A stretch of 64,000 nucleotides of DNA from Paramecium tetraurelia (taxonomy: Eukaryota), in assembly GCA_000165425.1 (NCBI GenBank), contig CT868068.1, positions 62,001 to 126,000 on the forward strand. Direction: 5' to 3'. A program made the position numbers and the translations under genes. The notes beneath the pieces were generated by a model, which made no database searches, was not told where the DNA came from, and was given only the letters and a program-made list of their open reading frames with translations. Shown piece after piece: positions 1 to 51,558 of this stretch. Each line of letters starts with the position of its first letter. The first letter of the stretch is position 1.

Positions 1-701
1 CCCAAATATCAATACTCTAAGCAGATAACATAATATTTTTACTCTATTGTATCTCTTTTTCTAGATTTATTCAGGTGCCATATACAAAATAGTTCCACAA
101 TTCTCACTCATGAGTCCTGAACCATCTATGTGTGCCAATTAAGCTGATAATCCAAAATCTATCAAGGTTACATGCAAATTCTCTGGATCAATCATGATGT
201 TTTCTAGTGTTGGTATTGACATTTACCAGGTTTAATATCCCTATGGATTATATCCTGCTAGTGTAAATATTATATGGCTTCAAGTATCTGCTTTGTTATA
301 CAAACAACAGTCTCGTTGTCCAATTAGTTCCTTTGATATTATGACAATGTAACTCCATTAATGAGATCCATGGTTATAAAAAGCTTATTTTTTGTTTCCT
401 TACTCTATCAATAAGAGTTCAAACATACAAAAGAAACACGCACGATATTCGCATGATTTAATTTAATTAGAAGTTGAGCTTCTTATCTCAAAATCTCTAT
501 TTGCTAAGAAGTAAAATGAACTTTGTCAATTATTTTTATTGCTACTAATTTATTTGACATATTCAGAGCCTCAATCACAGTAGAGAATGCTCCTTTCCCG
601 AGAATCTTAAGAGGTTTATATTATTAAATAAAGCCTTAATGCATTTCACCTTAGTCTAATAATATATCAAGTAAGTTCATCACATCATTTTATTGTTTCA
701 T
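1..701 (-). CDS. Ser/Thr protein kinase (CAMK-like), 3' end runs off the window
   Basis: Ciliate-code translation gives LGKGAFSTV, VAIK, HRDIKPENIM (across a 23-nt intron at 204-226), DFG and CGTILYMAPE. A second ~24-nt intron lies near 407-430. The start ATG at 701 is tentative; an upstream ORF from ~970 does not join in frame. Confidence 0.9.
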
Positions 702-1014
702 TTATTTATTATTTTTAGATTTTATTATTAATTTTACAAAATTACTTCATTGCATTAATATTATCAAAGACATTTAGATTATAATAAATTCTACTCTCCT
801 CTTTCCTGTTGAAAGGTGAGTGCGACATTTAAATTCTTGGGATTAATGTAAATTAATTTATTATTTATTGGTTGTCTCTTTAAAAAGAAAAGAAAGAAAA
901 CTTACCCTCTTAAGATGAAAAAATTGATTGATTAAGCTTCTAAATCTATCATTTAGACTTAAACCATCATATAACTTTATTTAATAGTAAAACAATTAAA
1001 ATTATTATAATAAA

Positions 1015-3834
1015 ATGTTGTAAGAGGTATAAGTGTTTTTTATAAGCCCCCTCTCATCATCTAATAGGATAAATGACGAATCCTTATAAAGTTACAAGTA
1101 TATACAATATATGGGATATAATAAAAATGCATCTATTTTATGTTCCCTAATACATTATGCTTTTAATAAACAAATTTCAAGAATCCTAGAGAGTATTCTT
1201 CAGCTGATTAATACCTTGAAGAACTAAACAATTTACACTGAATTTGTAAAATTAATCAAATAAACCAAATTTGAAAAGAACCATGTATAGAAATTCTTTT
1301 AAAATCTCTATCTGATAGACCAGAACAATGAAATTGCTGGAAAACTACTTTTTGATCTTTGCAAAAGTAAGGATTGGTTGGATGGTAGTTAAATAGCATA
1401 CAATCAAATAGCGAAAGAATTTTAGTTGAGGATTTCTATTTATAATTGCAATGAAGTTTATGGAATCTAATTCAAAGAAACTATCGATCTGATGGTTGAT
1501 GCTAATAAAAAATTCTATTTTCTCATCTCAGAACCAATATTTAAGAACATAGAGAAAACATAATGTCCCTAATGCAAAATAAAATCGGAATTTATTTTAT
1601 TGACTTGCAATCATAAACATTGCTATAAATGTTTACGAAAGAAATCTTAAATTGAGAATATCAAATGCCATTGTGGAAAAATATGTTATAAAAAAAATGT
1701 GTTGCATTGCTTATAAAACTTTGACAAAGTGAAAGAGTATAATGAAATGAGTAAAGTTTTGTTAAAATATTATGAAAGTGCAAATTCATCAGTTGCACTT
1801 ACAGATCAACAATTATCATTAGATAGAAGTAGAAGATATCATGCAAATCAAGATATTGAACAAAAGATTGCACCTACAGTTGAACCTCTATATGAATGTA
1901 GTATATGCTCAAAAAAGTCTTAAAGTTAATTATTAGTCTTAGAAGACTGCAAACATCAATTTTGTTATTATTGTGCATAGTAATATAAATTACAAAAAGA
2001 GTGTCCCTTATAAAACTGTATTAAAAAAATAGAGTAAAATTCATAGTAAACTTGTTTAAATAAAAATAATTCAAAAGAAATAGATTATCCAATTATTAAT
2101 TAAAACATAAAAGAAAGCATTTAAAATTCCTCCAATCCTAAAGTAGCAGAACAATGTTCTAGATGCTCTAACACATCTAAATATAAATTATTTGAAGTAA
2201 AAAAATGTAATCATAAATTTTGTAAATCATGCCTATCAAATATTGAGATGAAATATGAATTAGCCTTTTGTTTAAAACCCAAATGTTAATCAACATTTAC
2301 AAAGCAAGAATACAAAATGTACTTTAAGTCTGTATAACCATTATCAAATTCAGAGGTGCCTTAAATGTAAAGAGTGATTCCCCCCTAAAACTAATACTCA
2401 TCTTTTGACTGCGAAAGTTGTAAATATAAAAGAAGTGAAGATCAAAAATATATATTAAACTGTGGTCATTCTATTTGTAATGCATGTATCATTTTAAATG
2501 TTTAATTCAAAACAACATGCTGCTATTTAGCAGCTTTGGATTCTGAATATCAGCAATTTCGGAAAAATATGACTACAAATTGCAAAGGTTGCCAACTCCC
2601 TTTTCAAATAAAAGAATTGTTTTAGTCGAATTGTAAACATGAATTTTGTTTAAGTTGCTGTTAAAAAATATATTTAGAAAGATCTCAAAGATGCTTGGAA
2701 AAAAGATGTGGTAAACTAATATTTTTTGTAGATGATTTGTATAATTTCATTTGGAGTTAAAAAATAGAGGAAAGTAAAGATATTTCAAACAAAGAAGTAT
2801 AGAAAAAAACTGAGGAGTTAGAAGAATAAGACAAGGATTAAAATTTGGAAAAATAAGATAATAAACAAATAAAAGAAGATTCAAAGTAGATTGATAACAG
2901 TCTACACAGAAGTACTCAGTGTTAAAAAACAAAATCCATAGAGGAGTAAGAATCTCCTACACTTCAAAAATCTGTCATCAATTTAAAGGAATATAAAATT
3001 AATGAATAAAAGAAGGAGGAAATAAATTTACCATCAACAAAACTATAAGAGATTGTTAAGCCTAATGGTTAGAATCTTGTTCAGAATGGTGATCCAAGAA
3101 AATAGGAAGTTTACCAATTTGAAGATGATATTTCTGGGTCTGAAGAAAATTATGAAGAGGAGATAATTATTTACTAATAGATCGAAGAAATTAAATCTGC
3201 TAAAGAAAGAGAAAACGAATTTTGTAAAGGAAATTGTACAAATTGTAATTCAGAATTTTCTCCTTTTAATAAAAAATAATTGATTGATTGTAAATTACAT
3301 TAAATTGGAGCTTGTTGCATTCTAAACAAATTTATCCGTTGTCCCTAATGCGAATAAACTCCATCTAAAAAAATAATAATTCACTAAAAGCTGATACTAC
3401 CATGTAATCCTGTAGAAGAAGAAAGTATATTTGAATCAACCATCTTAAAACCCTCTTTAGGCAGTTACTATCCTCAATCTTTTCAGTAAACCTATAAGGG
3501 TTATAGTGATCAATTATAAAGATTAGAGAGATAGAGAAATAATTAAAATTCTGCGATTAAAAGAAATCTTACAACTGATACTGTCAATAAAAGGATTTAG
3601 GATAATCAATAAGTTTTAGAGGACAAATCTAAATATAAAAATGAATAGCTAATTCAGAATGAGTTGACTTTACTAAAATCTTCTCCTCCTTATCTTTAGC
3701 AACCATACCATCCCTATCGATATGAACGACTTCAGTATGGAGGATATGATCAGAGAAACAGGTTGGAATTATATAGCAGAGACTTTCATTTGAATTCAAA
3801 AATAACAACAGGATATTCAGGGAGGTTGTATTGA
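1015..3834 (+). CDS. Multi-RING-finger protein (6 RING-like units) with a degenerate OTU-like N-terminus, 939 aa
   Basis: ATG 1015 and TGA 3832-3834 are in frame. Repeated C-x2-C...C-x-H-x2-C-x2-C...C units at ~1564, 1897, 2155, 2410, 2581 and 3235. Confidence 0.85.
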
Positions 3835-3936
3835 GGTATAATAAAGGTTATTAATTTTGGAACTTTGTCTCTTTTATTTCAAAATTATTAAACACTAATA
3901 TAATATATTATATTTTCTTTTTATTATTTTACATTC

Positions 3937-6552
3937 ATGTATTAAATAACTCCAATATCAGATACAATAAAGTCTCGATACCCGTAACTCAAGGACTACT
4001 ACCTATGCTAATTTTTGGGGGAGAACCAATAATCTGCAATAATATGTTCAATCCTGCATTATCTTTTGAATCGTCGACTAAGCAGAAGTCTCGAATACTT
4101 TAGGAGTCCAAAAATAAATTACAAATAGTTGCATGCATAGGAAATCGCTTAATTCCTGCAGGAAAGTTTGGAAATGGAAAATCCAATATAAAACTTCTTC
4201 GAAAAGTTGTCAACTTACGATTAGAATAATCTTATGACAGAAGTTTTACTCTAAGACTTTTGCTTTTCTTATTAATTAATATATAAGGGTTAAATTTGTT
4301 TGAATTATTTGGCTGACTTCTTAGATTTGAATATTAATATCATTCCATAATTAAATAGTCTAGGTAGAGGGAATAGTAATTTAATTATAATAAGAGAGTA
4401 GGAAGAATATTATTTTATTATCCCGGAACCTCAATTCTAATTAGAAACCTAAACAATTTGCTTTAGTTGTAGCAGAAAGGTTTATGTCTTCCTGAATCTT
4501 TAATGTGATCATTAAATTTGTTTGAATTGTCTCTTTAAACAAAACCAGCAGAGTTATACGGATAATTTTCAATGTAGATGTGGATAAGTCATTTAAAAAT
4601 AGCAGGTTGAATAATTTTAAAATGAAATCAGTGCTATAGCTAAAACAAATCGTTATAATTTAGTATTGGAGCAATTCTATCATCAGTGCAGCTCCACCTT
4701 AGTTTAAAGAAAGAGTTAAATTCGTACTAGTTTTGCAAAATAGCTTAATGAATCAATATCTGAGTAATTGACTGCAACTGAAATTTAGATTTCTCTCCTT
4801 GATGAGACAAATAGAGTTTTAGAACAATTAGATGAACATTGTTGTAATTGTCATGGAGAATCAAACAAACCTTACTTTTATTTAAATAATTGCTCGCATA
4901 AATTTTGCTTTGAATGCATTAAAAAAGAGTTTTAAAATGATTGTTGTGGGGGATGTTATTGTATGGTTTGTCCTAATAAAGTCTCAAGAAAAGAATACGA
5001 GTTATATTTATAAATGATAAATGTTGCAAAAGACAACATCTAAGAGAAACCACCTGAAAAAGAGAAAACAGAAAACAAATGTTAAAATTGTAATAACAAA
5101 TTTCAATATCAATTGTTTGCAATAGAAAATTGTAAGCATAGTTTTTGTGATACATGTTTAGAATAGTTTTTTGCAGTTAATTACTTTTAAGTCTACTACT
5201 GTACTGTTCCAAATTGCCCAGGTACTTACAACAAGAAGGACTATGAAAAGTTTAAATAGGAGTTTAGAAAACAGTTGTAAATATCATATTCTGAATTAGA
5301 GAATTCATGTCATCAAATTTCGTGTGACTTTAATCTATTAAATAATTGTAAATAATGTCTAAAATAATTATGTGTTTCACAATCAGAAATTAAAGACTAA
5401 ATTTGCTCAAATTGCAGTAATCCAACTTTAAAAAGTAAGAATCTAATCGAAAACGATTCCACAAAGATCACTTCAGATGATCAGAAGGAAATCGATCTTA
5501 ATTGGAGTCTTTTAATAGATAAATGCTAAAAATGCTAGAAAGAATCACAATATTAATTATTCTAGATTCCATTATGTAATCATAAGTTTTGTAATTCATG
5601 CATTTAGGGTTCGATAGAAAACAAATAAAAAGATTAGAGATGTCTTAATAAGAATTGCAAAAGTTTATTTACTAGGGGATCTTATTAAAATTATTATAAT
5701 AATTTATTACAGGATAAAGAGATCATCCAAAATAATTAGCAAATATTAAATCAACAATTAATCACAAAATCAGAAACTTTCAAGCAATAACCAAAAATAA
5801 ATAATCTAGTAAATCTCAACTTTAACTCAAATGTAACTGTTTAAAGCTCAACAACTAGTACAACTGATTAATAATTGTGTTCATTTTGCAACATTTTGAG
5901 TGATTTGGATCAAGTCTTTCTTATCAAATGTGGACATTAAATTTGTTAGAGATGTAGTCTACGTTTAAAGGGTTAAAATTTTAGATGTAGTAAGTGTTTG
6001 ACTCTTTTTGATAATCTTAGATTTAAAAAGTTTAGATTATCTTGTAAGTACAAATGCGACAATTGTAAGAAAACCTTTCCTTTTGATTAGATTTCGCCAA
6101 ACTAAAAATGTCTACATTCTTTATGTTGGTAATGTCTCTAAATAATTTATACGAATAAAGAGACTCAATATTGTTGTGTCAAAAACTGCAAAAAATCATT
6201 TACTGTAGAAAAGGGTTCTAAAAATATTTAAATCTTTCCCTAGTAAGATGTTGACTCAAGTAAAGAAGCTTAACAAATTTTAAATTTGAAATTTGTAACT
6301 AGTTAAAAAATCATTTAATCGAATTCTTAAGCTATTGCTAAAATTGACCAAAGCCTATCTATTTTATTAGAGTAAAAAAAATAGAAATAAGAAATTGAAC
6401 AACCTTTTAAAATACAATCATGTATGATTTGTAATTAGGATTTCGATGATTACAATTTGCCGGTAGTCTTCTCGTGCAATTTACACATAATTGGTATATG
6501 TTGCATACTTAATAATTATCAACTATGTTACCTATGCGATAGAGGGCTTTGA
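3937..6552 (+). CDS. Multi-RING-finger protein (7 RING-like units), tandem paralogue of 1015-3834, 871 aa
   Basis: ATG 3937 and TGA 6550-6552 are in frame. RING units at ~4459, 4841, 5079, 5524, 5878, 6055 and 6421. Shares motifs with the upstream gene (SAIICSILHY vs ASILCSLIHY; LHIIGICCILN vs LHQIGACCILN). Confidence 0.85.
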
Positions 6553-6592
6553 ACACTATATTTACATATATTAAGCTTATATTCATTTAATT

Positions 6593-6868
6593 ATGTTATA
6601 ACATCAATGCTCGGAAAAATCTTTTGAGAGTTTTAGACACAATTTAGGTTCATAGGATCACTTGGAGCCTGATGAAATACAAACACCAGAAATTTATGCA
6701 GATTATAATTCGATCTCCCTTCATTAAGAGATCAGAAATGAAAATATGCAATTTATTAAAAAAAAATATTGTTTTAAGGTAATTACATTAATGTAAGAAT
6801 AACCCAATCAATTGAAGCAAAAGAAATGTTATTGCCAAACTCTCGATCCCGAAAACAGTAATTCTTGA
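6593..6868 (+). CDS. Short hypothetical ORF (91 aa)
   Basis: ATG-to-TGA open frame filling the gap between two genes; no recognisable motif. Confidence 0.35.
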
Positions 6869-6904
6869 TTTTATTTATATTTATTCCATTTCGTTTTAAA
6901 TATT

Positions 6905-9430
6905 ATGATAACAAAACAGATAAATGCAGTTATTCTAGTAATTTTATAAGAATTGTGTAAGCATTGCAAATAAACTAAATAAAATCCACGTGATGTGATA
7001 AGTTACTTTATTCAACCAGATAAAAAAGGTATGGATGTTTTTGGATTTATGATTATGATTAAAAAGATTTTACCATTTGCTGAAGAATAAATGATTGAAA
7101 AGACTTTTTCATACATTTAGTAGCGATTTGGATGTAAATTATTAACTAGTTAAATATTTGAGGAGCTTATGATAAGAGTAGAATCTTAAATGACTAATAT
7201 TGAACTGTCTTAACAAATAAGGTTCAGAACAAAATAATAAATTGAATCATAACAATAAAGCAATATTTAGATGAATAATGCATCAGCAATTTAGACTTAG
7301 CATGAAAAAAAACCAATATTTGATTAAAATTTTAAACCCTCTTAGATGACAAATATAGTTTCTTAACAAGTGCCTAAATAAAATGTATCAAATTAAGTTG
7401 CTTAAAATTGCAATCGATCAGAAATAGAGTTAATTTAAACTTTCAGCACAAAATTAAAAAATGCAAATATCAACTTTATCGATGTGTTCAATAAGTTTGA
7501 TAGCAATAAAGACAATATGATGAATCAGTTAGAATTTTAGAAGATGATTCAAATTGTAATCAAGGATATCAAAGAAGATGAATCAAGAATCCTCGCTCGA
7601 TGGGTTTTCAAAGATTAAAACAAAGAACTAACAGCATTTCAATTTAAGAAGATTTTTGAATTTCAAGAGTAAATTATTCCATAGGCTAACATTATGGAAT
7701 CCAACTACTATGAAAATCCTGCTAATTAAAAATTATTATAATCAAATTATCAATTCTAAGAGTGCTTTGTTTCTGATTACAACCTAGTAGCTATGAAAGA
7801 ATTCCTTTCAAAATATCAATAATTAAAGAGCCAGAATTAATTATATACTGACCCTGTATTCCCTCCAAACTAAGTAAGTTTGGGAAGTAAATTCTAACAA
7901 TTTTAATGGAAAAGAATACCTTAATTTATTTCAAATCCAAAATTCTTTGTCAAAGAAAACATAGTAAACAGATTTGGTATTGGTAAGTGGATTACACCAG
8001 ATGATTTACAATAAGGGTAATTAGGAGATTGCTACTTTTTAGCCTCGATCAGTTCATTAGGGAACAGGAGACCTGATCTATTATTGGAAACATTTGTTAC
8101 TAGAACTTTCAACCCTCAAGGACTCTACGGTGTCAAATTGTGCATTGATGGAGAATGGAAAGTTATTGGAATAGATGATTTCATTCCAACCCACTACAAT
8201 AAGCCAGCATTCACCAGAGGGAAAGACTCAGAAATATGGGTTATGGTAATTGAAAAGGCATGGGCTAAAGTATTTGGTTCGTATGAGAATATTGAAGCTG
8301 GTTTCCCTTCAGAAGTCTTAAGAACCTTAACTGGAGCACCAACTAGAACTATATTCACAAGTGATGAGAATTTTGTTGAAGACTTGGAAAGTTGCATAAA
8401 GAATAGATGCATAATGGTATGCTCATCTAAAAATGAAAATAAATAGTAATATAAACTTATGGGGCTAATAGCTGGTCATGCTTATACAGTACTAAAAATT
8501 AAAGATTTGAATTCCAATACAAAATTAATCAAACTTAGAAATCCTTGGGGAAAGGAGGAATGGAAGGGAGATTGGTCGAATTAAAGTCAATTGTGGACTC
8601 CAGAGTAGAAGGCACAATTTAAAATAACAAATGCTAATGATGGAGTCTTTTACATGAGCATCACAGATTTTCGTAAATATTTTGATGACTTATCTGTTTG
8701 TTACGTGAAGGAAGGGTATTAGTATTAATCTACTACACTTCAATCAAGTAATAGGAAAAGCGAATATTTTAATATCTAAATTTAAAAGCCAGGGTGCTAT
8801 TATTTTACAATGAATTAAAAGAACGTTAGGTATTAATTTTTATAATTCAATAGATTTGAGAATAGCAATCAGTATTCACCAGCTAAGATTTTGTTATTTA
8901 AAGGAGATAGTTTATTAGATGGCAATTTTAAGAGCGATAGAGAATGCTGGATAAGTAAGGATCTCGATTAGGGATAATATACACTAGTTATCAAAGCTTA
9001 ATGGTAGTTTTCTAAAATGAATAAGTACACTTGGTCATGTTATGGACCTGGTCCAATTCATAGCGATAAGATTAATAAGATTCCTAATTTATTGAATTCT
9101 GCCTTTCTTAAGTTAGCTAGAGTAAGCGTAAAAAAGAAAGGATATTAAAAGCACCCAGACATTAAGTAGGCGTATGAATTTCATCTTAAATATGGGTATC
9201 AATATGTATATATGATTAGTTATGGATTTTACTATGTCGAGAATCAAAGCAACAAGAGTTTTGAAAGTAAAGTGAGATTTTCATAAATGAAAGGTTTAAA
9301 ACTCCGAAAACCTTATAGAGGATATAGCGTGGAGATTAACTTATAATAGAATCAAGAGTTCTTTGCTTTGTTAAGTGTTTCTAAATCTGGATATTCCTTT
9401 GGTATTGAAGAATAGTATATTGTAAAATGA
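6905..9430 (+). CDS. Calpain-family cysteine protease with N-terminal EF-hand region
   Basis: Triad motifs QGQLGDCYFLAS, GHAYTVL and LRNPWG, plus IEKAWAK. EF-hand-like DSNKDNMMNQLEF near 7500. Two 24-nt introns (8830-8853, 9196-9219). Confidence 0.93.
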
Positions 9431-9513
9431 TAAACCGATAAAATCCAAATGACTTCTATTTTAATCTTAAATTATATCTAGTTATTACGATTGGAAATTA
9501 ATATATAATTATT

Positions 9514-12154
9514 ATGATAAAATCACTTAAGTGTGTCAAATGTTTGCAAGAAACAAAAGAAAGTGCATCTTATAAAGCAAAATGTGGACATCTATATTGC
9601 AACAAATGTATTGACTAGATTACTGCTGAAGGAGGTTCAAACTGTTCAGAAAAACAATGCTCTTATTTTCTAAACATATCAGATCTTATGAACAGGCAAT
9701 TCCAAAAAATATCCGGAAGCAACTAAATGGTATTTGGGAAATAAATTACAATGTTTTAAGGAGATGCTAAAAAAATGGGTATAATGACCATTTATAATAG
9801 CATCACCATCTTAATAAAATAAAGCAACACCTATAAAATAGAATGTTCAAAATGGCAACACTCCAATAAAATAATAAAAAAATACTTAACCTCGAAGGTC
9901 ATTTTAAGAACGTTCCCCTGTAGCAATTTAAACAAAGTCCAAATCTTAGATGCAAAAACTTACAGATAGGGTTTTACAATAATAGAACAGCGCAAAGGTT
10001 ATTCAACCAAAATAATAACAAACTTAATAAAGATAATAACAATAATAGTAATAATAATAATAATAATAACAATAATAATAACAATAATAATAATAACAAA
10101 ATAGATAATAATAAAATTAATAAATCATAAAATAACAATAGATTCAATAAACAGATTAAATATAACCATAAAAATAAGAAATCAAAGTCAATATTGAAGA
10201 TAGAATGATTGAATCTATCTAGTATAAATGTGATTATTGCAATTCCAATACTTCCGGATTATTTCATAATGAAATATGCGATCATAGATTATGTTATGAT
10301 TGCATCTAAAAATATTATGAGGAATTCTGTGTCTGTTTTGTAAAGGATTGCGGTTGGTAGATCAACTAGGAATAATTAAATTAGTTTATGCTCACTTATG
10401 TTACATTTCAATTAAATGAGGTTGAAGAAATTAAACTAAAAAGACAGCAGTCCTCATCAGATCAATAAGACATTCTTATAAGCAAATTTCAATTTGAAGA
10501 AGTTACTTTATAACATATGTAAATCTCTAATATGAATGAATTCATTAAGACATTTGATGAACTCAAAATTAAAGAAAAAAACTACGTAGATCTTAGATTT
10601 GGTCCAAATGAAAAAAGTGTTGGTTCAAATTACACTGCCACTTGGTAGAGATTGAATGTTATTTTTAATGGAGATTTTCAATTTTTTGCGAAATCAAGTG
10701 ATAATAAAAGGTTTGGACTAGGAAAGTACATTGGTCCCCAAGATATAATACAAGGATAATTAGGGAATTGCTATTTGTTGGCTTCAATTTCTGCTCTGGG
10801 AAATAGAAGACCTGATTTATTATTAGATGTCTTTATTACGAGAGCAATAAACGAACAAGGAATATATTGTATAAGATTGTGCATAGATGGAATATGGAAA
10901 GCCATATATGTAGATGATTATTTCCCAGTCTATCCTAATCTAAGTCCCATTTTTACTAAAGCTAAAAATAATGCAATATGGGTCATGGTATTGGAGAAAG
11001 CATGGGCCAAATTATTTGGATCCTATTAAAATAGTGCATCAGGTTCTATGTAAGAAGTGCTAAGAGCTTTGACTGGAGCACCTACAGAAGTAATCTGGAC
11101 TCAATCTCCAGACTTTATTGCCTAGCTTCGAAAATGCCTTGCCAATAGAGTTATAATGGTTGCAGCAACCTAGAGTAGTGAAGTTTAACCAATTACATAA
11201 GGATTAGTTCCAAATCATGCCTATTCAGTTCTAAAAATCAAATAAATAAATCACCCAAAAAGAGGATAAGTGGAACTACTGAAATTAAGAAACCCTTGGG
11301 GAAAAAAGGAGTGGACAGGTGATTGGGGATAAGAAAGTCCATTATGGACTCCGTAATTAAGATAGGAGTTAAAGTTAGATTCTGAAGATTCTGGTGTATT
11401 TTATATGGATATTGGATCATTTATGCAATAATTCAGAGATATCCATATTTGCCATGTCTAATAAAATTACTAATATTCTGCAACACAAAGCAAATCCAAT
11501 AAAAAAAAGGCTGTTTACTATTCTTTTAAAATTACTAAAGATGGGGATTATTACTTTACTATAAATTAACGAAATCAAAGATGGGCAGGGAATCCTAAAT
11601 ATAGCAATGCCAAGCTATTAATTTGTAAGAAAGAAGAAAATAATTAATACACATATATCGCTGGTAAACTTAGTTAATTTGGTGAAGTTTGGTGTAAATG
11701 CACCTTAACAAAGGGGGAATACGTTGTTTTTGCTAAAGTAATTTGGGAACATCACCAAGAGTTCTTCTTTGTTCTCTCTTCATATGGAATGGAAAAACTA
11801 GAATTCAAACAAATAAGAAAGATTCCTGATATGCTTCCCAGTGTTTTCATAAAGAAAGGGTTTGTTTAACAACCTAAACGAAGCTACGACACAATGGGAT
11901 AACCCAAGATTCAAAGTTGCTATAATCTAGATAGACTGGATGGTTGGGGCTATTATTTCATTGACAACTAATCAAGTGTTAAATTAATAAGCAAAATATC
12001 ATTCCATAAATTCTATGGGTTGCGATTTTGTAAACCTCATAGAGGAGTCACTTTAAATATTGAACTGCCCCCTGGTAAATAGTTTATTGCTGTAATCAAA
12101 GTGTTATCAGGATATGAAATCGAATTTACTCAAAAGGTTCAATTTCAACAATGA
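9514..12154 (+). CDS. RING-polyQ-RING-calpain fusion protease (~872 aa)
   Basis: N-terminal CVKC...CGHLYCNKC...C RING; 22-nt intron at 9779-9800; Q22 tract; second RING CDYC...CDHRLCYDC; then QGQLGNCYLLAS, NHAYSVL and LRNPWG, all in one frame to TGA at 12152. Confidence 0.9.
10034..10099 (+). repeat. (TAA/CAA/TAG)22 coding microsatellite encoding polyglutamine
   Basis: 22 consecutive Gln codons, mostly TAA, in the same frame as the downstream calpain domain. Confidence 0.9.
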
Positions 12155-13309: not shown

Positions 13310-14587
13310 TCAACACTAATTTGACTGCTTCATTTAAAAATCATTTTTTTCAATTTTTTTGTCTGGAAAAAACAAATCCAAAAGTTCTTGTCTCATCTTT
13401 TATAAAAACTTGTATTATAGGAATGAATTATTCTAGAATTAACTTAAATAATTAGCAGCTATGCATGTATAGTATCCGCAACTGGACCCATCTTTCTATT
13501 TTGGAAAATCTTTTTTATTTAGAACTTCGAATTTAAAATATTAATCTTTGGTAAGAGTTTGGAATACTGTATTAAAAAAGAGTTCTACTTTATAAGACAA
13601 GCTATTGAACATAGAATCATATAAAATTAGCAATCTTTCATCTACTTTCACTTCAAGAAATTGCCAATGAAAATTACTACTATTAATTACTATCCCTATC
13701 TTTTTGTAAATAAGCCAGAATTTATATTAGATGGCACTAAATTATTTAATATGTTCCAAAAATAGGCATATAAATTTTCTTTTAACGTGCTCCTAATCTT
13801 AAATTTCAAATTATTTGAGCGTGCAATTAGCTATAAGTGATGAAGGAAATATAATAAGTCTTTAGTAATTTTTTCTTTCTCGAGAAGGCAAGGAGAAATA
13901 ACGAAGTTCATCTTAAATTTGTAAGTAGTTCATGTAACCATCAATAATATTGGTATTTAGCAGCATGTTATAAGTAGATAATATTCTAAATTCTGGATCA
14001 GATATGTTTTGGTTATATTTATAATTATTATTCTCATTTTTAAACTTCAAATAGTATGGAAACCTTTCTTGGACTATTTCTTATTCATCTGTGATGGTTA
14101 TCATCCAAAACATCTTCAACCGCATAATAACTTTATCATTATGCTTAATTATATCTGTTTATACTGTTTCTTTAAATAAATTGGATTATTGATACAAATC
14201 TAGATTTCCTTCATTGATGAATTTGATAACTTTATTTTAGGATTTCGTTTCATCATTTTGATAATTTTTACCATTGCTATAAGGATTGATTTAATCTTAA
14301 TTTTAGAAAAAAGTTTATTCAATTTAATATTAGGAGATCTAAATATCTTATTATTTTAAATCTTGCAAATAGGTTTGATATTCTGAATTTATGTATTCAA
14401 TGTATGATTGAGAAACTTCAATCTATGGCTAATTCTATTACTAAACTGATTCCTATATGTTCTGTTCAAAGAGTTTTAAGTATAACTTTTTGATTTCAAG
14501 TTGTAAACCAGAGAAATTTCTGTACAAACTTGATTATTTGAGATTCTGCATATGATCAAATTTTTCTTCATTCTATTCTAATTTCAT
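13310..14587 (-). CDS. Ulp1/SENP-like (peptidase C48) protease, 425 aa
   Basis: LLNTNIIDGYMNYL, FHWQFL...ILYDSM and PKQKDGSSCGYY give His-Asp-Cys plus the oxyanion Gln. Start and stop are in frame. Confidence 0.85.
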
Positions 14588-14633: not shown

Positions 14634-16055
14634 TCATAATTATTCGTAATAAAAAATGTCTTTCAAATCACTTTTAATGTCCTTCTTTTCCTTAAAATCC
14701 TTTACTCTATGTGTATTACTAAAATATTCTAGGGCAATACAAGTATGATAGCCACAAGAATATGAATCATTTTAACTTTAAAATTTTGGTTTAAAATACA
14801 TTTTGAATTCATATTAGTCTTCCTTAATGTTCTTTAATTGGTTCTTCTGAAGCTCATAAAATACATATGACAATAAAGCTCTAACCTTATGATAATGTTG
14901 GGAACTTCCACTTAAGGAATCATAAATAACCATGAATCTTTCTTTTAAATCCAAAGTAAGCATATACCAATGTGAGTTATTTTTATTTACAATAAATGCA
15001 ATTTTTTGATAGATAAGCCAAAATTGATATTGAATAGTTTTAAACAATTCTAGTTTCTCAAGTATTAATAATAACCATTTTTCTTTGAGAGGTGGAGATT
15101 CCAAATTACAATTGGTTAAAAAGTCAGAAGTAAAAATAAAGAGTCGTGGGTATTATTCTCTTTCTGCTGATGACAATGAAAAGTAATATCTTTCATCCAA
15201 CCCAGATAAATAATTACCGTATCCATCAATCATAGAACTAGTCCAATATTGACCTGTTTTTTCGAACATTTTCTATTCCCATTTGCCAATATTTTAATTT
15301 AATTTGATTTTTGGAAAAGTTTCCTAGAACTCAAACTTCTTTATTCTTCCCTCTTCCTTCAATGATTCTAATTTAAAAAGATCTTTTTCATAATGAATAG
15401 TTTTTCTTGAGACCATCTCATTTCCTACTTTTGTTTATAATTAAAACTATTTTAATTACATAACTATTTCATTTTCATTACTTTGATCTAAGACTATATC
15501 ACATTATTGGCATTTACACTTCAGCTTAGGTTTACTTTCCCTTTTCATCTACTCTTTTCTTTCATATTCAAGTTTTGGTTTTAATTAATCGAATTGAGTA
15601 TCACCGTGTTTATAAGTTTGACAATGCTTTTATACTCCCTTCTGAAAAGCCTTTAAATTTAGTTTCTCTTGAAAATGCAATTAATTAATATTTCCCGAAG
15701 GATTTACTAAAGGTAGAATATTTTAAGTATCTTTAGAAATTAAATGAATTGTTCTCTTATTGCTTACATTTTAATTCTATTAAAATTAATTATTAAGTGG
15801 ACATTTATCATTTTCATTATTATGTCCTCCATGTTTTATGAAATATATTTTATGAGGAGGTTATAGATAATATTTTAATTTATCTAATTTCTCTTTTACA
15901 TAATTCACAAAAACTGATTATTGAGGCTATTCTAATATAATTGGTTTGCATTTTGTGTTAAAAGGCTCTTCACTTTAAGCTATTACTGGAACCCTGACAT
16001 AAGTAGAATCTGTCACCTCCACTGTTTTGATTAATTTTCTATGTTATTGCATCAT
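14634..16055 (-). CDS. Ulp1/SENP-like (peptidase C48) protease, tandem paralogue, 473 aa
   Basis: WTSSMIDGYGNYL, NNSHWYML...VIYDSL and SQNDSYSCGYH; start and stop are in frame. Confidence 0.85.
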
Positions 16056-16170
16056 TATAATTATTTTATTTTATAATAATTTGTTATGACAATACATTTT
16101 TCTACATAAACTAGTTGTTGTGTTTTTTCTTTTAAATTTTCACAATTTTATTAATTTAATAAATATCAAC

Positions 16171-32590: not shown

Positions 32591-33360
32591 TTTTTTTTAT
32601 TTTATAATTAATATTATTTAAAAACACTATTATCAAATTTAAACATCAATTCTTGTAACTTCCTTATTAAATGATAAACTGGATTTTATAATGTAATAAT
32701 CATCGTGTCAATTAAATTATATCATCAGAATAGTGTTTACTCTTGCTTTTACAATCCCTAAAAAATGTTTTTATATGCAAAAAATACTATCTAATAAGAT
32801 ATATGATATAGAATTGTTTTTATATTTATCAATTCTCATATTTCTATTATTCAATTGGTTTATTTTGATAGTTACAAATATTGTTTATATATTAATATTC
32901 ATTTGGAATTACTGTGTCTTTTCTTCATTAATTAATATATATTATATTTATAGAAAATAAGAAAATGAGTAAAGAAATTTAAGTTTCATATTCTCACTAG
33001 ATTCCAAGTTGGTATTCTAGTTCTAGTTGCACTGAATATTATTTAAAATATAAATCTATCACATCTTTAAATATTATTTTTTTAGCTTTATTCAATTTTG
33101 GCACGAATTCTGCCCTTTATATCCATTTATTAATATCTATTGCCAATTGCTTAATTATATATTCTTAGTGCAAAAAGTAAAACTTATACTAAATATTAAA
33201 AATATTGCACATATTATAGTCTTATAATTCATTTTAGAGATGGCCATAAAATTAAAATACATTAGAAAATCATATCAATTAAATAAGCTCATTTTATAAT
33301 TGGATATTTTTATAAAATAGTTCTTGTATTAATTATTAATTATAAGTTAAAGAAAAAGCC

Positions 33361-34125
33361 ATGAATATAGTAATACTTTGCAAATCAATTCTAGAAGTAA
33401 AGATTGTCGATCCAAACTAAAAGATATACGATTATATGTGCAAAATTTTTGAAAGGCCGAAAAACAACATCATAGTATAAATATCACCCACTGAAAAAAT
33501 TGATTAAGAGGAGTATTTTTCAAAGTTTATGAATGAAAATCTTGATAAAATAGCATTTTATGTTCTAGATTCGAATGGATGCTCTATATAGTATACTAAC
33601 CAGCCGTATAAGAAATAGACTAGCATTACATAATATGGGTACTGCAGTCAAGAAACTGATGAGATCTCATTGAGTAGAACTTTAACGAGAAACATATCAT
33701 CACAGAATTTTGATATTGGTACTGTCAAAGTTATTTAGACTAATGTGTGTACATTCTGTACGACTTAAATTGAAGAGGATGATATTCAAACATCCTGTTA
33801 GCATTTCTACCACGCTAAGTGCTTTAAGCTTATAATAGAGAACTAATTGTTGTAAAAATCACCAGTTCTAAATTGTATGTGTAAAATTCAACTGAATTTG
33901 AGTTCCCTATTTCGATTAGACGATAAGTATGAAGCTGATTCCTTCAAACATAGATTTATACTGAATTAGTTGTCTGCATTAGAGAAGAATATATAGAAGA
34001 AGTTTGGAAATGAATTTAGGAAATGCAAGAATGTTAAAAGCTGTAAATTTTTTTATTTGCATTTACCTTTCATCTAAGATTAACATGAGTATTGCCCAGA
34101 GTGCTTATGGCGTATAAATAAATGA
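33361..34125 (+). CDS. RING-finger protein with C-terminal IBR-like Cys cluster (254 aa)
   Basis: CTFC...SCQHFYHAKC...CMC followed by KCKNVKSC...YCPEC; in-frame ATG to TGA. Confidence 0.75.
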
Positions 34126-41938: not shown

Positions 41939-42020
41939 AATATTTTTATTTATTCCTATATAAATTATATTGCATATTAAACGCTGTATTCATTCCGACT
42001 AAAACAATCACAATTCTTTA

Positions 42021-42971
42021 TCATCTGAACCAAGTGCTAAATCCTTTCCCTCTGCCATTTCTCACTATCAAATACTTGCAGTCTTTCGAAACATAGAAAC
42101 TATTTTCACAGCCTGCAAATGCTATCGATTACTGTAATTACAGTTCCTTGTCATGATAACTAAATATTCGAATTGTTTTATTGAATTTATGAAACAGCAA
42201 TTTTCCTTCGTTCTAAAAACTGATTGAATTTTCCCGACTGATGTCAGGTTTTTTTTCGAGATAAATTTCTGTTATTCTAATTAATTTTGAACGCCAATGG
42301 TTCCATTCATATTACATTAATTTCTAACTAGTACTTGGTGATGATACGAACATATTTTAATCCAAAAATACCACCATTTTCCAAATTGAATAAATTGATG
42401 TTCTTACTTTATAACTAATTTGCCATTTCTAACCATTTTAACATTTAGCCAAAAGTATTAAACTTTGCATCCCAATCACTAATTCCTTTTCTGACTCACT
42501 CAAACTCATACTAGTAGCTTTCTCTTCTAGTTCTAATTCAAAATAAATTATCCTCTTTTATGTACTTTATTCCTTCTACCAAAATTGTAAGGATCTTTCA
42601 AAAGAAATTATCATCTTTTTTTCATCTCTATTGAATATGAGGAATTATATTCTCTCTTACAAACTAATCACTTTTCCTTTTGCCCACACCTTTTCTTCAT
42701 TGAACTTCCAAAAACTTAGACAACACCCCATTGTGATAAAAGTTTTGCCTGATTTCATAAAATACACCTAATGTATTAGTAATTCCTAATTTTAGATTAT
42801 TTATGTATTAATCATCTGCCCATCGTCTTGCAGTGAATATATATATATAACTGTCCAAGTGCACCCAATCAGGATTGTTGAATCATTATTGATCGTAAAG
42901 CATTTAAAAGACTCATTATCTATTTTTTCTTGTTGATTCACAATCTCAAACTTTTAGTACTTCTAATTCAT
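42021..42971 (-). CDS. Divergent WD40/beta-propeller-like protein (316 aa)
   Basis: Fully open frame; repeated patterns such as CFTINNDSTILIG, LSFWK, LIFNRDEKKMII and LQFWQ. Confidence 0.6.
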
Positions 42972-43038
42972 ATGATAAGGATTATTATTATTGAATTATA
43001 AACTATGCATAATACTAAATGGGACTGTTATATCATAA

Positions 43039-44223
43039 TCAAAATTTCCAATTAGAATCTGTAGCCATAGCCCAAATGAATTTATTTCTTAAAGTTTTTG
43101 AAAACACTCTTTCAATAGGCACATCATGTACTTTACAAAATGCAACACTNNNNNNNNNNNNNNNNNNNNNNNNNNNNNNNNNNNNNNNNNNNNNNNNNNN
43201 NNNNNNNNNNNNNNNCAATTTGATATGTTCTACTCTAAGACTGCAACAACCTACTGTATCTGCTTCATCCTCATCCTTATCATTTCCAACTCTCAATGCC
43301 AATTTATCTATCAAATAGGTTGCTGTTCCTAATTATCTTTCTTTAATTGAATCTGATTGTAATTTCTTAGTGTAATTTTCTCTAATTTGATCAATTTAAT
43401 TCTTCAATCTCCTTGCCTTCTCATACTTCCTCTTATCATTCATCTACTTAAATCTTGAAGTGGCAGCAAATTGAACATATTTATGATTGTCCTTTCTGAT
43501 GCTTGAATCCACATAAGAAAACAGCCAAGTGACATCATTTCTATGCACAATCTTGCCCCAAGAATGACCAGGTAATTTACATTAAGGCACTGGTGCTTAA
43601 GTGCTTAGATTCACTGTTAATTCTTCTGGAAATATCCTGGCTTTCAATAACCCAGCCTTTGGATGTTCCCCTCGTCCCTTGAATAAAGTGGGCTATTCCA
43701 GTGTGTAATTACCTACTCTTTCCAAACAACCATCCACCAAAGCATATCCATAAAACAACTCCCTTTGATCTCTTTCTAATTTCTCCTACTTTTTTTATTC
43801 ATCTGATTTATTCAATCTCAATAATCTTTGCTATTCCAAATGTTCCCTTATCTTTGTGAAATCAGCCTTGTCCAATTAAAACCCTTCAAATTTAGTCTGC
43901 ATTAGAGATTCAAAATTCTTCCTATAAATTTCCTTATTTTCATATGGAGATCCAATCGATTACGCCCAATACGTGCAAAGTTCTTCCTACTCCTCCGTCA
44001 GGGTTATCAATTTCCCATTGTATATCAAACCCACATTATGTCTCTTATAAAATGGAGGAAACAAAACTCCATGATGTTCTAAGTACCTCCACTCCTAACC
44101 CTATTGTTCTTCTTCTTCAGATTCCTCAGGATTGGCTTCTTCCCACCAGTTGTGTGATCTTGCTTGGAATCCCCCCAAACGAATCTCTTTATATTCATCA
44201 ATTTTGATTTTCTTGTCACCCAT
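43039..44223 (-). CDS. TOP1: DNA topoisomerase IB, interrupted by an assembly gap
   Basis: [31 protein letters not shown] and [30 protein letters not shown]; after the N-run comes the C-terminal [26 protein letters not shown]. Confidence 0.95.
43150..43215. other. Assembly gap (66 N)
   Basis: Run of N bases in the sequence. Confidence 1.
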
Positions 44224-44386
44224 TTTATATTAAATAATTTAATTTCTTATTTCAAATATCAATGCCTGATCTATTAATACGAACTAATTTTATTAATAAT
44301 TCATAAATCAAAGCACCTCCTCAGTATCTCCTTTCTTAATATTTTGGAATTCATAAAACCTTGCAAATATTATTATTATAAAAATA

Positions 44387-49183: not shown

Positions 49184-51558
49184 ATGACAAGTATTTGTGA
49201 ACATATCATTGAACAACACATCACATGGTCAGTCTAGGGACAGATGATATACAAGGATCAATGCACTCGATGTTTTGTGGAAGCCAAAAGTGACAATGGT
49301 ATACAGGTGTGTTTGAAATGTTTTAATGGAGGTTGTATTGAAATGCACAGTCCTCAGCATAGTGATCAACATAATCATTACGTTGTTTTGAACATCAGAT
49401 TATTTGAGATCGAATAACCATAACAGAAAGTGGAGGAGATTAATAAACTAGTGATTGCCGACATTCCATAATTGGAGTGTGAAACAAGTGTGACTTGTTT
49501 GAAATGCTAGAAAGCATTGAATTCTCCAGAGTTGGATGGATTGGTTTAGTCAATTAAATAAGCCAATTCTGCATTTAAAAGACAAGCAATAGCATAATGG
49601 GAACACACAGCTTAACCATGCGAACATACATTAACAATGGAATAGATACCATTGGTTGAGAAGAATTTATAAAAATGTAGAAGTTGTCATTTGTCATCTA
49701 ATTTATGGTTATGTTTGTATTGTGGACATGTAGGTTGTGGTAGAAAAGTGTACGATGGATCAGGAGGAAATAATCATGCTGTTGATCATTCTAAGGAATT
49801 TTAACATCATTTGGTTGTCAAATTGGGAACAATCACATCGGATGGTAAAGGTGATGTATTTTGTTACAAATGTGATGATGAGGTAGTTGATAACTTTCTT
49901 AAAGAGCATCTGGCTACTTATGGAATTGAAATTGAAAAGTAAGTGAAGACAGAAAAAACCATTGCAGAATTAACCTTGGATGCCAATTTATCATTGTAAT
50001 TGAGTAAATTGATAGAAGAGGGTTAAGTGTTGGATCCAATCTTTGGACCTGAATTCACAGGAATTGATAACATTGGAAACACATGTTATATGAATTCAGT
50101 TGTTTAAGTATTGTTTAGTATACCAGAATTCTAAAAGTTGTACTCTCTTGAACATTAATTCAATTGCAATAGATTGCCATACAATTGTATTTTGTGTCAG
50201 ATCAGCAAGGTTAATCATGGTCTTAATAGTGGTGAGTTTTCAATAAAAAAGGTAGCCAAATCTCCTTTGGATACTGAAGGAGCCTAAAAGGATTTCTACT
50301 AAGATGGAATCAGATTGTATGATTTCAAGCAATTAGTAGCAAAGGGAAATCAACACTTTCTTTCCAATCATTAATAAGATGCATTAGAGTATTGGCAATT
50401 ACTGAACTAATTCTTTTAGAAGACAGAAAAATAATTCAAATTAGAATAGTTATCCACTATCTTCTCATTCGATTAGACCACTATACTTTAATGTGTGAAT
50501 TGTGGGGGACACAAAACAAATAGTGTCAAAAATTAAGAATTCAAAGTGCCTGTTGAATAGCCTACTTAGGAGTAGATTAATCTCTATTATGCTCAAGAGA
50601 AATAGAAGTATGAGGAGAGAATCAAAACTATGAGACCAGAAGACATAAAGCCATTCGAATTGAATGATTTACCTGAGTATGACACAACCTTTGAAAAGTG
50701 TTTGTAATTAGTCAAGGAAGGAGAACGAGTAGATATGTTTTGTCCTAAATGTTAATCTCTCTAATTATTCGTGAAATAAGAGTATTTTAAGACTTTCCCT
50801 AAATATTTATTTGTACCTGTAAATAGATTCGTTTAAGAGAATTGGGTTCCCAAGAAATTGAATGCATCTATTAAAATTTAACAGTTCTATGATTTTGCTG
50901 AATTCAAAGAGCCTGTGTTGCAAGATAAAGATGCTTTGAAAGAGTAATCTGCATAGGAGTATACAGAGGAAAACTTGTAGACTTTAATCGGAATGGGTTT
51001 TGGAGAGAACAGATGTAAACGAGCCTTGATCAAATATAAGAATGACGTTGAAGCTGCTATGATGTTTATTATGGAATCTTTAGATGATCCAACTCAAGAT
51101 TAACCATTATAACAAAAACAATAAGGATAACAAATTAACGAAGAGTTTGTGGAATAAATAGTTGTAATGGGATTCAGTCCAGAATAAGCTAAATTTGCAT
51201 TATCTAAGACAGTATATAATTAGCATCTATATATAATAGGATAATAATTTGGAGAGAGCTATGGATTACATCTTCAACCACGACCTAGAAGCTGAGATGA
51301 GTCAGACCCAAGAGAAGTAACAATAGAAATAAGATCAATTTGAAAATCAAACATCTAAATATGAATTGTTTGGTATCTGATCCATATTAATTTGTAGCCT
51401 GTATCGTCCATTTAGGGAAGTCTGTTCACTGTGGACATTATGTATCCTACATAAGAAAGAATGGAGAATGGATCCTATTCAACGATTCAAAGGTTGCCAA
51501 GTCTGCAGAACCAGCATTACACAAGGGTTACATGTACATCTTCAGAAGACTGGATTGA
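49184..51558 (+). CDS. USP5: Ubiquitin-specific protease of the USP5/USP13 (isopeptidase T) family
   Basis: ZnF-UBP NLWLCLYCGHVGCGR...GGNNHA, Cys box GIDNIGNTCYMNSV, QQDALEY, two UBA domains (MGF motifs) and His box HLGKSVHCGHYV. Confidence 0.95.

Follow-up and report, generated by a model that had tools for sequence, protein, structure and literature searches.

RING E3 ligases normally have one RING finger. Mind bomb has three, and plant PRT1 resembles the proteins described below in placing more than one RING (two) in a single chain. A20/TNFAIP3 joins in one chain an OTU fold and zinc fingers that function in ubiquitin ligation. Pseudo-deubiquitinases are also known, but to our knowledge they are rarely fused to ligase modules, and we know of no otubain that is fused to RINGs. 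The subject here is a pair of adjacent genes, A and B, found in a 64,000-nucleotide stretch of Paramecium tetraurelia DNA (contig CT868068.1 of assembly GCA_000165425.1, positions 62,001 to 126,000; 'the window' refers to this whole stretch). Each gene encodes six or seven RING-type units preceded by a domain that is predicted to have an otubain fold devoid of its catalytic residues. The best explanation, to which we assign a probability of roughly 0.55, is that A and B are tandem paralogues of a Paramecium-restricted pseudo-OTU/RING-array family, putative E3 ligases or E3-like scaffolds of the ubiquitin system. RING, OTU fold and pseudo-deubiquitinase are each familiar components; what is new is their combination, the high RING count and an otubain remnant that is invisible in the sequence.

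The window has a G+C content of 25-33%, and long open frames are present only when TAA and TAG are read as glutamine; translations given here use the ciliate code (NCBI table 6). Gene A (P0001, positions 1015..3834) is an intact open reading frame of 939 amino acids, where 60 TAA/TAG codons specify glutamine. It consists of the pseudo-OTU, five C3HC4 RINGs, a low-complexity linker, an atypical RING and a conserved tail. Gene B (P0002, 3937..6552) begins after a gap of about 100 bp and is likewise intact, with 871 amino acids, 70 TAA/TAG glutamine codons, the pseudo-OTU, six C3HC4 RINGs and the atypical RING. Both genes, and all their features given below, are on the + strand. They are collinear paralogues (BLASTP 26% identity over 598 columns, E 2e-39), and no third paralogue was found in the window by tblastn with both proteins.

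The preliminary description of this DNA had reported 13 RING-like units, six in A and seven in B, and this count holds. A regular expression for canonical units, C-x2-C...C-x(1-2)-H-x2-C-x2-C, finds five in P0001 (first Cys at residues 184, 295, 381, 466 and 523) and six in P0002 (175, 302, 382, 530, 648 and 707). One atypical unit closes each protein, CKLHQIGACCILN...CPQC in A and CNLHIIGICCILN...CYLC in B, as had also been recognized. As a control for chance, over 2000 residue shuffles the six-ligand core appears with a mean of 0.0 (maximum 0) vs five observed in gene A, and with a mean of 0.001 (maximum 1) vs six observed in gene B. Across all six frames the window contains 13 occurrences of the pattern, 11 of them in the two genes. 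All zinc ligands of the shared units are invariant in an alignment of nine Paramecium sequences, which have 26-80% identity to the first sequence.

The first unit of gene A (1564..1686, residues 184-224) ends in CHC, has invariant ligands and is the orthologue of the first unit of gene B (4459..4581, residues 175-215), which ends in CRC; the CxC ending ascribed to both is thus present. In gene A there follow unit 2 (1897..2019, residues 295-335, CSIC...CPLQNC), with 27.2 bits for zf-C3HC4_3 (cutoff 27) and 22.5 for zf-C3HC4 (cutoff 21), unit 3 (2155..2286, residues 381-424, CLKPKC), unit 4 (2410..2523, residues 466-503), with 23.0 bits for zf-RING_5, which is under the cutoff, and unit 5 (2581..2709, residues 523-565, CLEKRC). 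The spacing proposed earlier fits most units but not gene A unit 4, where the last pair is an adjacent CC and falls outside x(1-4). Gene B continues with unit 2 (4840..4971, residues 302-345), which has the Cys-rich end CCGGCYCMVC, unit 3 (5080..5217, residues 382-427, CTVPNC; zf-C3HC4 22.6 bits), unit 4 (5524..5658, residues 530-574, CLNKNC; zf-C3HC4 21.0 bits, equal to the cutoff), unit 5 (5878..5997, residues 648-687, CSFC...CSKC) and unit 6 (6055..6189, residues 707-751, CCVKNC). The atypical unit of gene A (3235..3351, residues 741-779) reads C-x2-C-x14-C-x2-H-x4-CC-x9-C-x2-C and has no significant Pfam match; that of gene B (6421..6537, residues 829-867) matches zf-RING_2 at E 0.064 only. 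In the alignment both fall on the ligand columns of the canonical units, with Cys5 shifted. No segment of the gene A protein is better conserved than this last unit, which has 92, 77, 62 and 62% identity to P0003-P0006.

What kind of RING is this? Of the 11 canonical units, four attain the zf-C3HC4 gathering cutoff when scanned singly (22.5, 21.1, 22.6 and 21.0 vs 21), and seven stay under it. A profile made of the 13 units gives 237 distinct matches at E<=1 among PDB sequences, and the 60 listed are all RING proteins, e.g. RING1B/BMI1 (8e-11, a two-RING chain), RNF4 (1e-10), COP1, TRIM21, RNF8, TRIM25 and BRE1. The best single domain scores 1.9e-6, and no RING-between-RING (RBR) protein is among the 60. 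In agreement with the initial assignment, the units are C3HC4 RINGs, with ligand order C-C-C-H-C-C-C-C and the RING fold. An AlphaFold2 model of gene A residues 175-590 (416 residues, from an 11-row alignment) has a predicted local distance difference test score (pLDDT) of about 65-89 in the units, highest in units 1 and 3-5, with unit 2 at 64-69. The pLDDT falls below 50 in three linkers, unit 5 directly adjoins unit 4, and the predicted template modelling score (pTM) of the whole is 0.32. The model suggests that the gene A RINGs are independently folded beads on flexible strings.

The preliminary description was correct on the RING units but overlooked the domain that precedes them, and this changes what the protein is. 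A, B and the wider family share an N-terminal region of 165-180 amino acids, which corresponds to 1015..1542 in gene A (residues 1-176) and to 3937..4431 in gene B (residues 1-165); the two align. An AlphaFold2 model of this region, from a 23-row alignment, has pLDDT 90.5 and pTM 0.88, and the best PDB matches in Foldseek are all OTUB1/OTUB2 (3von at E 7e-4, template modelling score, TM, 0.55). As modelled, the domain has the OTU fold. A protein-language-model Atlas places it near otubain/OTU clusters at 0.79-0.81, which is a lead only; the Pfam OTU match is weak in gene B (E 0.095, 13.6 bits vs a cutoff of 23.3) and gene A has none. OTUB1/OTUB2 (peptidase C65) and the pseudo-deubiquitinase FAM105A/OTULINL have no detectable sequence similarity to the domain, whose size falls about 40-50 residues short of the OTUB1 core.

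The first core helix of OTU enzymes begins with the nucleophilic Cys, and a His, together with Asp or Asn, is in the C-terminal strands. Both the catalytic Cys and the His are absent here. Helix 37-52 of the model begins K37-N38-A39, with no Cys at its start; its only Cys, Cys43, is six residues in, about two turns from the N-terminus; P0006 has Y in its place, P0010 has T, the wider family has I, M, L, V or G, and P. bursaria has I. The last two strands, i.e. residues 150-183 of gene A and 140-174 of gene B, are devoid of His. With the catalytic positions placed by topology of the model and by known OTU motifs, we conclude that the domain is a predicted otubain-type pseudo-deubiquitinase. One P. 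tetraurelia relative, P0013, which may represent a less decayed intermediate, has G-H-F where otubains have the catalytic His motif but lacks a Cys in the place of the nucleophile.

How widely is the architecture distributed? With a profile of nine full-length sequences, a search of 1.84 billion representatives gives 86 matches at E<=1e-3 and 18 at <=1e-10. The N-terminal domain is present in P0003-P0010, P0012-P0017, P0019, P0022, P0024, P0028, P0038 and P0044, and in the fragments P0023 and P0074; these carriers hold 1-6 RING cores, and those with a source name are all Paramecium (sonneborni, tetraurelia, octaurelia, pentaurelia and primaurelia). The hidden Markov model (HMM) of the domain missed a 721-residue P. 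bursaria protein, P0114, yet its first 202 residues align by BLASTP (E 2e-10) to the N-terminal domain and unit 1 of gene B, and the whole protein follows the gene B order, with several RINGs and the atypical last unit. The other profile matches are multi-RING proteins, mostly metagenomic, along with one psyllid protein, one plant-type RBR and one kinase-RING protein, and the N-terminal domain was found in none of these. Within the libraries searched, the plan of a pseudo-OTU, 1-7 RINGs and an atypical C-terminal RING is restricted to Paramecium. Metagenomic P0026, P0034, P0048 and P0066 have several C3HC4 RINGs per chain, as do A and B; however, these proteins, PRT1 and Mind bomb have no pseudo-OTU and no H-x-IG-x-CC last unit, and none is a described array of six or seven.

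Close relatives retain both genes. A word-indexed search finds orthologues of gene A in P. octaurelia (80% identity) and P. pentaurelia (63%), and orthologues of gene B in P. octaurelia (83%, same protein size), P. pentaurelia (67%) and P. sonneborni (55%). Remoter copies, with 40-41% identity, are present in P. pentaurelia and P. tetraurelia. Since the orthologues of A and B are on contigs of identical size (399,968 and 407,258), the tandem pair is probably conserved. The sole name these orthologues carry is the automatic "RING-type domain-containing protein". The view that the architecture matches no characterized family is borne out: neither a paper nor a curated name was found, and a literature search that covered main texts gave no description of a pseudo-OTU joined to a RING array or of three P. 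tetraurelia gene identifiers.

Units group by position and not by protein in a maximum-likelihood tree that takes in 53 units of ten proteins (58 columns, with many forks open): A1 with B1 (96/92), A4 with B5 (95/87) and A5 with B6 (88/100). The array is accordingly older than the A/B duplication. A3, B3 and B4 form one weak cluster (83/88), in which the placement of B3 is unresolved. The unequal number of middle units that had been remarked upon is seen in both the alignment and the tree, and amounts to one extra unit in gene B. The alignment shows this to be unit 3, an insertion relative to the A clade that has no gene A counterpart; it could stem either from an internal duplication near units 3/4 or from a loss in A. 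Directly after it is a degenerate Cys-rich stretch (5305..5412, residues 457-492), which is not counted as a unit. P0007 and P0008, which are orthologues, have other residues in place of its cysteines, and the P. octaurelia orthologue has lost four of them. As its cysteines are not kept in orthologues, the stretch was ruled out as an IBR domain; it looks like a decaying half-unit left by duplication. In the A clade, P. sonneborni P0010 has four cores by the regular expression: unit 4 has lost its C-x-H core, and the fourth core groups with A5.

There is some evidence of expression. Three oligo-dT RNA-seq runs with the same species label give 76, 53 and 32 reads on window positions 500-7000, without joints. 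Nearly all of them cover gene A and have their first mate on the - strand, and gene B has scattered reads only; in most stranded libraries a first mate on the - strand denotes + strand RNA. A fourth run, the kind of which was guessed as RNA, yields a 2839-nt collinear contig at 1034-3871 with 0 differences, depth 14 and no joints; its flanks have depth 0-0.4, and gene B is found as fragments at depth 3-8. A and B appear to be intron-less genes with low-level transcription from the + strand, A more than B.

What might such proteins do? According to PMC3940038, canonical RINGs contact the E2 through an Ile or Val in loop L1 and a conserved Pro in loop L2. A hydrophobic L1 residue is present in three of the 13 units, gene A unit 2 (CSIC), gene B unit 5 (CSFC) and the atypical gene B unit 7 (CMIC), and it is kept within the clades (I or L in 5/5 for A unit 2, F or Y in 4/4 for B unit 5, I or F in 4/4 for B unit 7). 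Only gene A unit 2 has L1 and the L2 Pro together. The canonical RING E3s that are the best profile matches (RING1B/BMI1, RNF4, COP1, TRIM21 and RNF8) share ligand order and spacing with the units as far as Cys6, but they have one RING each, whereas A and B have 6-7, most without the L1 Ile/Val and the L2 Pro. The scarcity of L1 residues argues against a chain of six or seven equivalent E2 sites, and the multivalent E2-binding scaffold envisaged in the preliminary description is doubtful. The residues favour one or two E2-competent RINGs per protein.

A mechanism can be sketched on this basis. The fixed plan of the family is a pseudo-OTU, a join of about 10 residues, a string of C3HC4 RINGs on flexible linkers and a conserved atypical RING-like unit at the end. 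By analogy with the non-catalytic action of OTUB1, the dead OTU domain might bind ubiquitin or a ubiquitin-charged E2 (E2~Ub); in PMC10919355, OTUB1 is described as binding and inhibiting charged E2s without catalysis, and pseudo-deubiquitinases as commonly being binding or scaffold modules. Only RINGs with a hydrophobic L1 (unit 2 in A, units 5 and 7 in B) would recruit an E2. The others, many of which have a longer second loop of the RBR RING1 type, would be structural or partner-binding, and together with the atypical unit they could bind partners or substrates.

Several observations weigh against such a role, or against parts of the evidence on which it is built. For every member, E3 activity and the binding of E2 or ubiquitin are predicted properties. 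In whole-protein Pfam scans of A and B the RING scores are under every gathering cutoff, and seven of the 11 canonical units are sub-threshold also when scanned alone, five of these seven being top-scored by a RING model. A basic residue after the last Cys, the 'linchpin' position, is found in two of the 13 units. The HMM of the N-terminal domain finds no OTU among PDB sequences, only two chance matches at E 0.5-1.4, so that the otubain relationship is visible by structure only. The catalytic positions are located by topology and known OTU motifs. RNA coverage of gene B is sparse. For gene A the RNA contig starts 19 nt past the ATG at 1015, and this start codon is thus provisional; the alternative is Met33 at 1111, the start annotated for two orthologues. 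Conservation among paralogues includes the first 32 residues, which are modelled inside the OTU fold. Lastly, ten of the 13 units have no hydrophobic L1, and the models resemble RINGs that are not E3 ligases (GATOR2/SEA, TFIIH MAT1, IRF2BP2 and Slx1) just as closely as they resemble E3 RINGs.

These last two points lead to the main rival explanation: a non-catalytic RING scaffold for protein-protein assembly, as in GATOR2/SEA, TFIIH MAT1 and IRF2BP2, where the dead OTU would be a further interaction module. This is possible, and well short of probable. Twelve of the 13 units lack the L1 and L2 Pro pair, non-E3 and E3 RINGs tie in structural similarity, and RING pseudoligases in the TRIM family are the subject of PMC11992055. 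Against the scaffold, each clade has at least one unit that keeps the conserved hydrophobic L1 (unit 2 in A, units 5 and 7 in B), and fusion to OTU, a fold of the ubiquitin system, points to a ubiquitin-related role.

Could the OTU domain be active after all? An A20-like 'ubiquitin-editing' enzyme would combine RING E3 activity with an OTU that works through non-canonical residues, such as Cys43 and His47 on one helix face. Cys43, His47 and Cys116 are invariant or nearly so in the A/B clade, and PMC10919355 reports that some presumed pseudo-deubiquitinases proved active through non-conserved residues. However, Cys43 is replaced in P0006, P0010, the wider family and P. bursaria, as described above, and the last two have D or E for His47; Cys43 is also well inside the helix rather than N-terminal, and the C-terminal strands have no His. 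A20 itself differs from A and B in having an active OTU and A20-type zinc fingers, not RINGs, and its OTU is a weak structural match to the model (Foldseek TM 0.31). An A20-like enzyme is improbable.

The units had also been likened to RING1 of RBR ligases. As to loop size and nearest structures the likeness is real: six of the 13 units (2, 3 and 5 of A; 3, 4 and 6 of B, with the motifs given above) have a C-x4-C second loop and not C-x2-C, and RBR RING1 domains make up nine of the top ten structural rows for the modelled units, units 3 and 5 being nearest to RBR RING1 structures with scores tied with ordinary RINGs. PMC3940038 mentions additional residues in loop L2 of RBR RING1. The likeness does not extend to the IBR/RING2 modules. 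No IBR/BRcat or RING2 was detected in the single-unit Pfam scan (IBR, IBR_1 and IBR_2 only at E 0.06-3.4, under cutoffs), and in the unit alignment no RBR-type catalytic Cys is identifiable, all units having the C3HC4 order. With no detectable IBR/BRcat, or Rcat with a catalytic Cys, A and B are not RBR ligases. Known RBR ligases (HOIL-1, HOIP, ARIH1/2, RNF144A and RNF216) have one RING1 each, whereas A and B repeat RING1-like units 5-6 times and have no IBR/RING2. Foldseek with the 416-residue array model gives no match at E<=0.001, and its weak rows mix RBRs, TRAF6, CTCF zinc fingers and single RINGs, so that this search does not decide between RBR and canonical RING. That the proteins are divergent RBR ligases with unrecognizable IBR/RING2, a later unit supplying a catalytic Cys that forms a ubiquitin thioester, is very improbable, even with the C-x4-C loops, the structural rows and a plant RBR (P0033, E 3.9e-7) among the profile matches. 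Least credible of all are dispensable, fast-evolving lineage-specific genes, their repeats expanding and drifting to decay: presence in one genus only, a unit number of 1-7, the decaying Cys-rich stretch of gene B and the low RNA coverage would fit, but at least five species keep intact open reading frames, no ligand varies among sequences with 26-80% identity to the first, unit orthology predates the A/B duplication, the plan is kept in P. bursaria, and transcription is seen.

The pseudo-OTU/RING-array family with a ubiquitin-system role remains the preferred explanation, and it has a bolder version. The dead otubain may have kept only the E2~Ub clamp known from OTUB1 and, with the RBR-RING1-like array, may hold several E2~Ub or hand them over. 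This is an unlikely proposal, made by analogy. If true, a clamp coupled to a RING array would constitute an undescribed ubiquitin machine evolved within Paramecium, either a processive chain-building platform or an E2 sink. Binding of ubiquitin or E2~Ub by the OTU remnant, if it occurs, would make the family a natural experiment in which a clamp is coupled to RING modules, and one that shows the growth of RING arrays along with loss of E2-binding competence. The findings also offer a better annotation for Paramecium proteins now called "RING-type domain-containing", and they are a case where structure prediction recovers a domain missed by Pfam and HMM searches.

Gene A has a conserved C-terminal tail (3352..3831, residues 780-939) that is absent from gene B. 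It has 85, 73, 45 and 42% identity to P0003-P0006 and belongs to no Pfam family; an Atlas search of residues 725-939 yields RING-family leads below 0.9 and nothing for the tail. A TPR match in the whole-protein Pfam scan was judged spurious.

Directly downstream of gene B is the first of two tandem calpain-family genes (6905-9430, +; Peptidase_C2, E 1.5e-75). The second (9950-12154, +; Peptidase_C2) has an N-terminal RING-like unit similar in type to those of A and B, CDYC...CDHRLCYDC...CFVKDC, at 10229-10303. Upstream of it, in another frame, a small open reading frame (9427-10197, +) carries a further RING-like unit, CVKC...CGHLYCNKC...CSEKQC, at 9532-9609. These two frames may be exons of one RING-calpain gene. 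A 386-residue open reading frame at 32965-34125 (+) has a RING-H2-like motif, CTFC...CQHFYHAKC, with no Pfam match at E<=1e-5. Two tandem Ulp1/SENP-type Peptidase_C48 genes are at 13310-14587 and 14634-16097, both on the - strand (E 2.5e-9 and 2.1e-16), and a USP5/isopeptidase-T-like deubiquitinase gene with zf-UBP_var, zf-UBP, UCH and UBA domains is at 49184-51295 (+). The presence in one window of several genes of ubiquitin and ubiquitin-like systems (Peptidase_C48, USP5-like) may be due to chance. At about 42000-44300, runs of N, which appear as X in translations, break a topoisomerase I gene (43039-44304, -) and the adjoining open reading frame.

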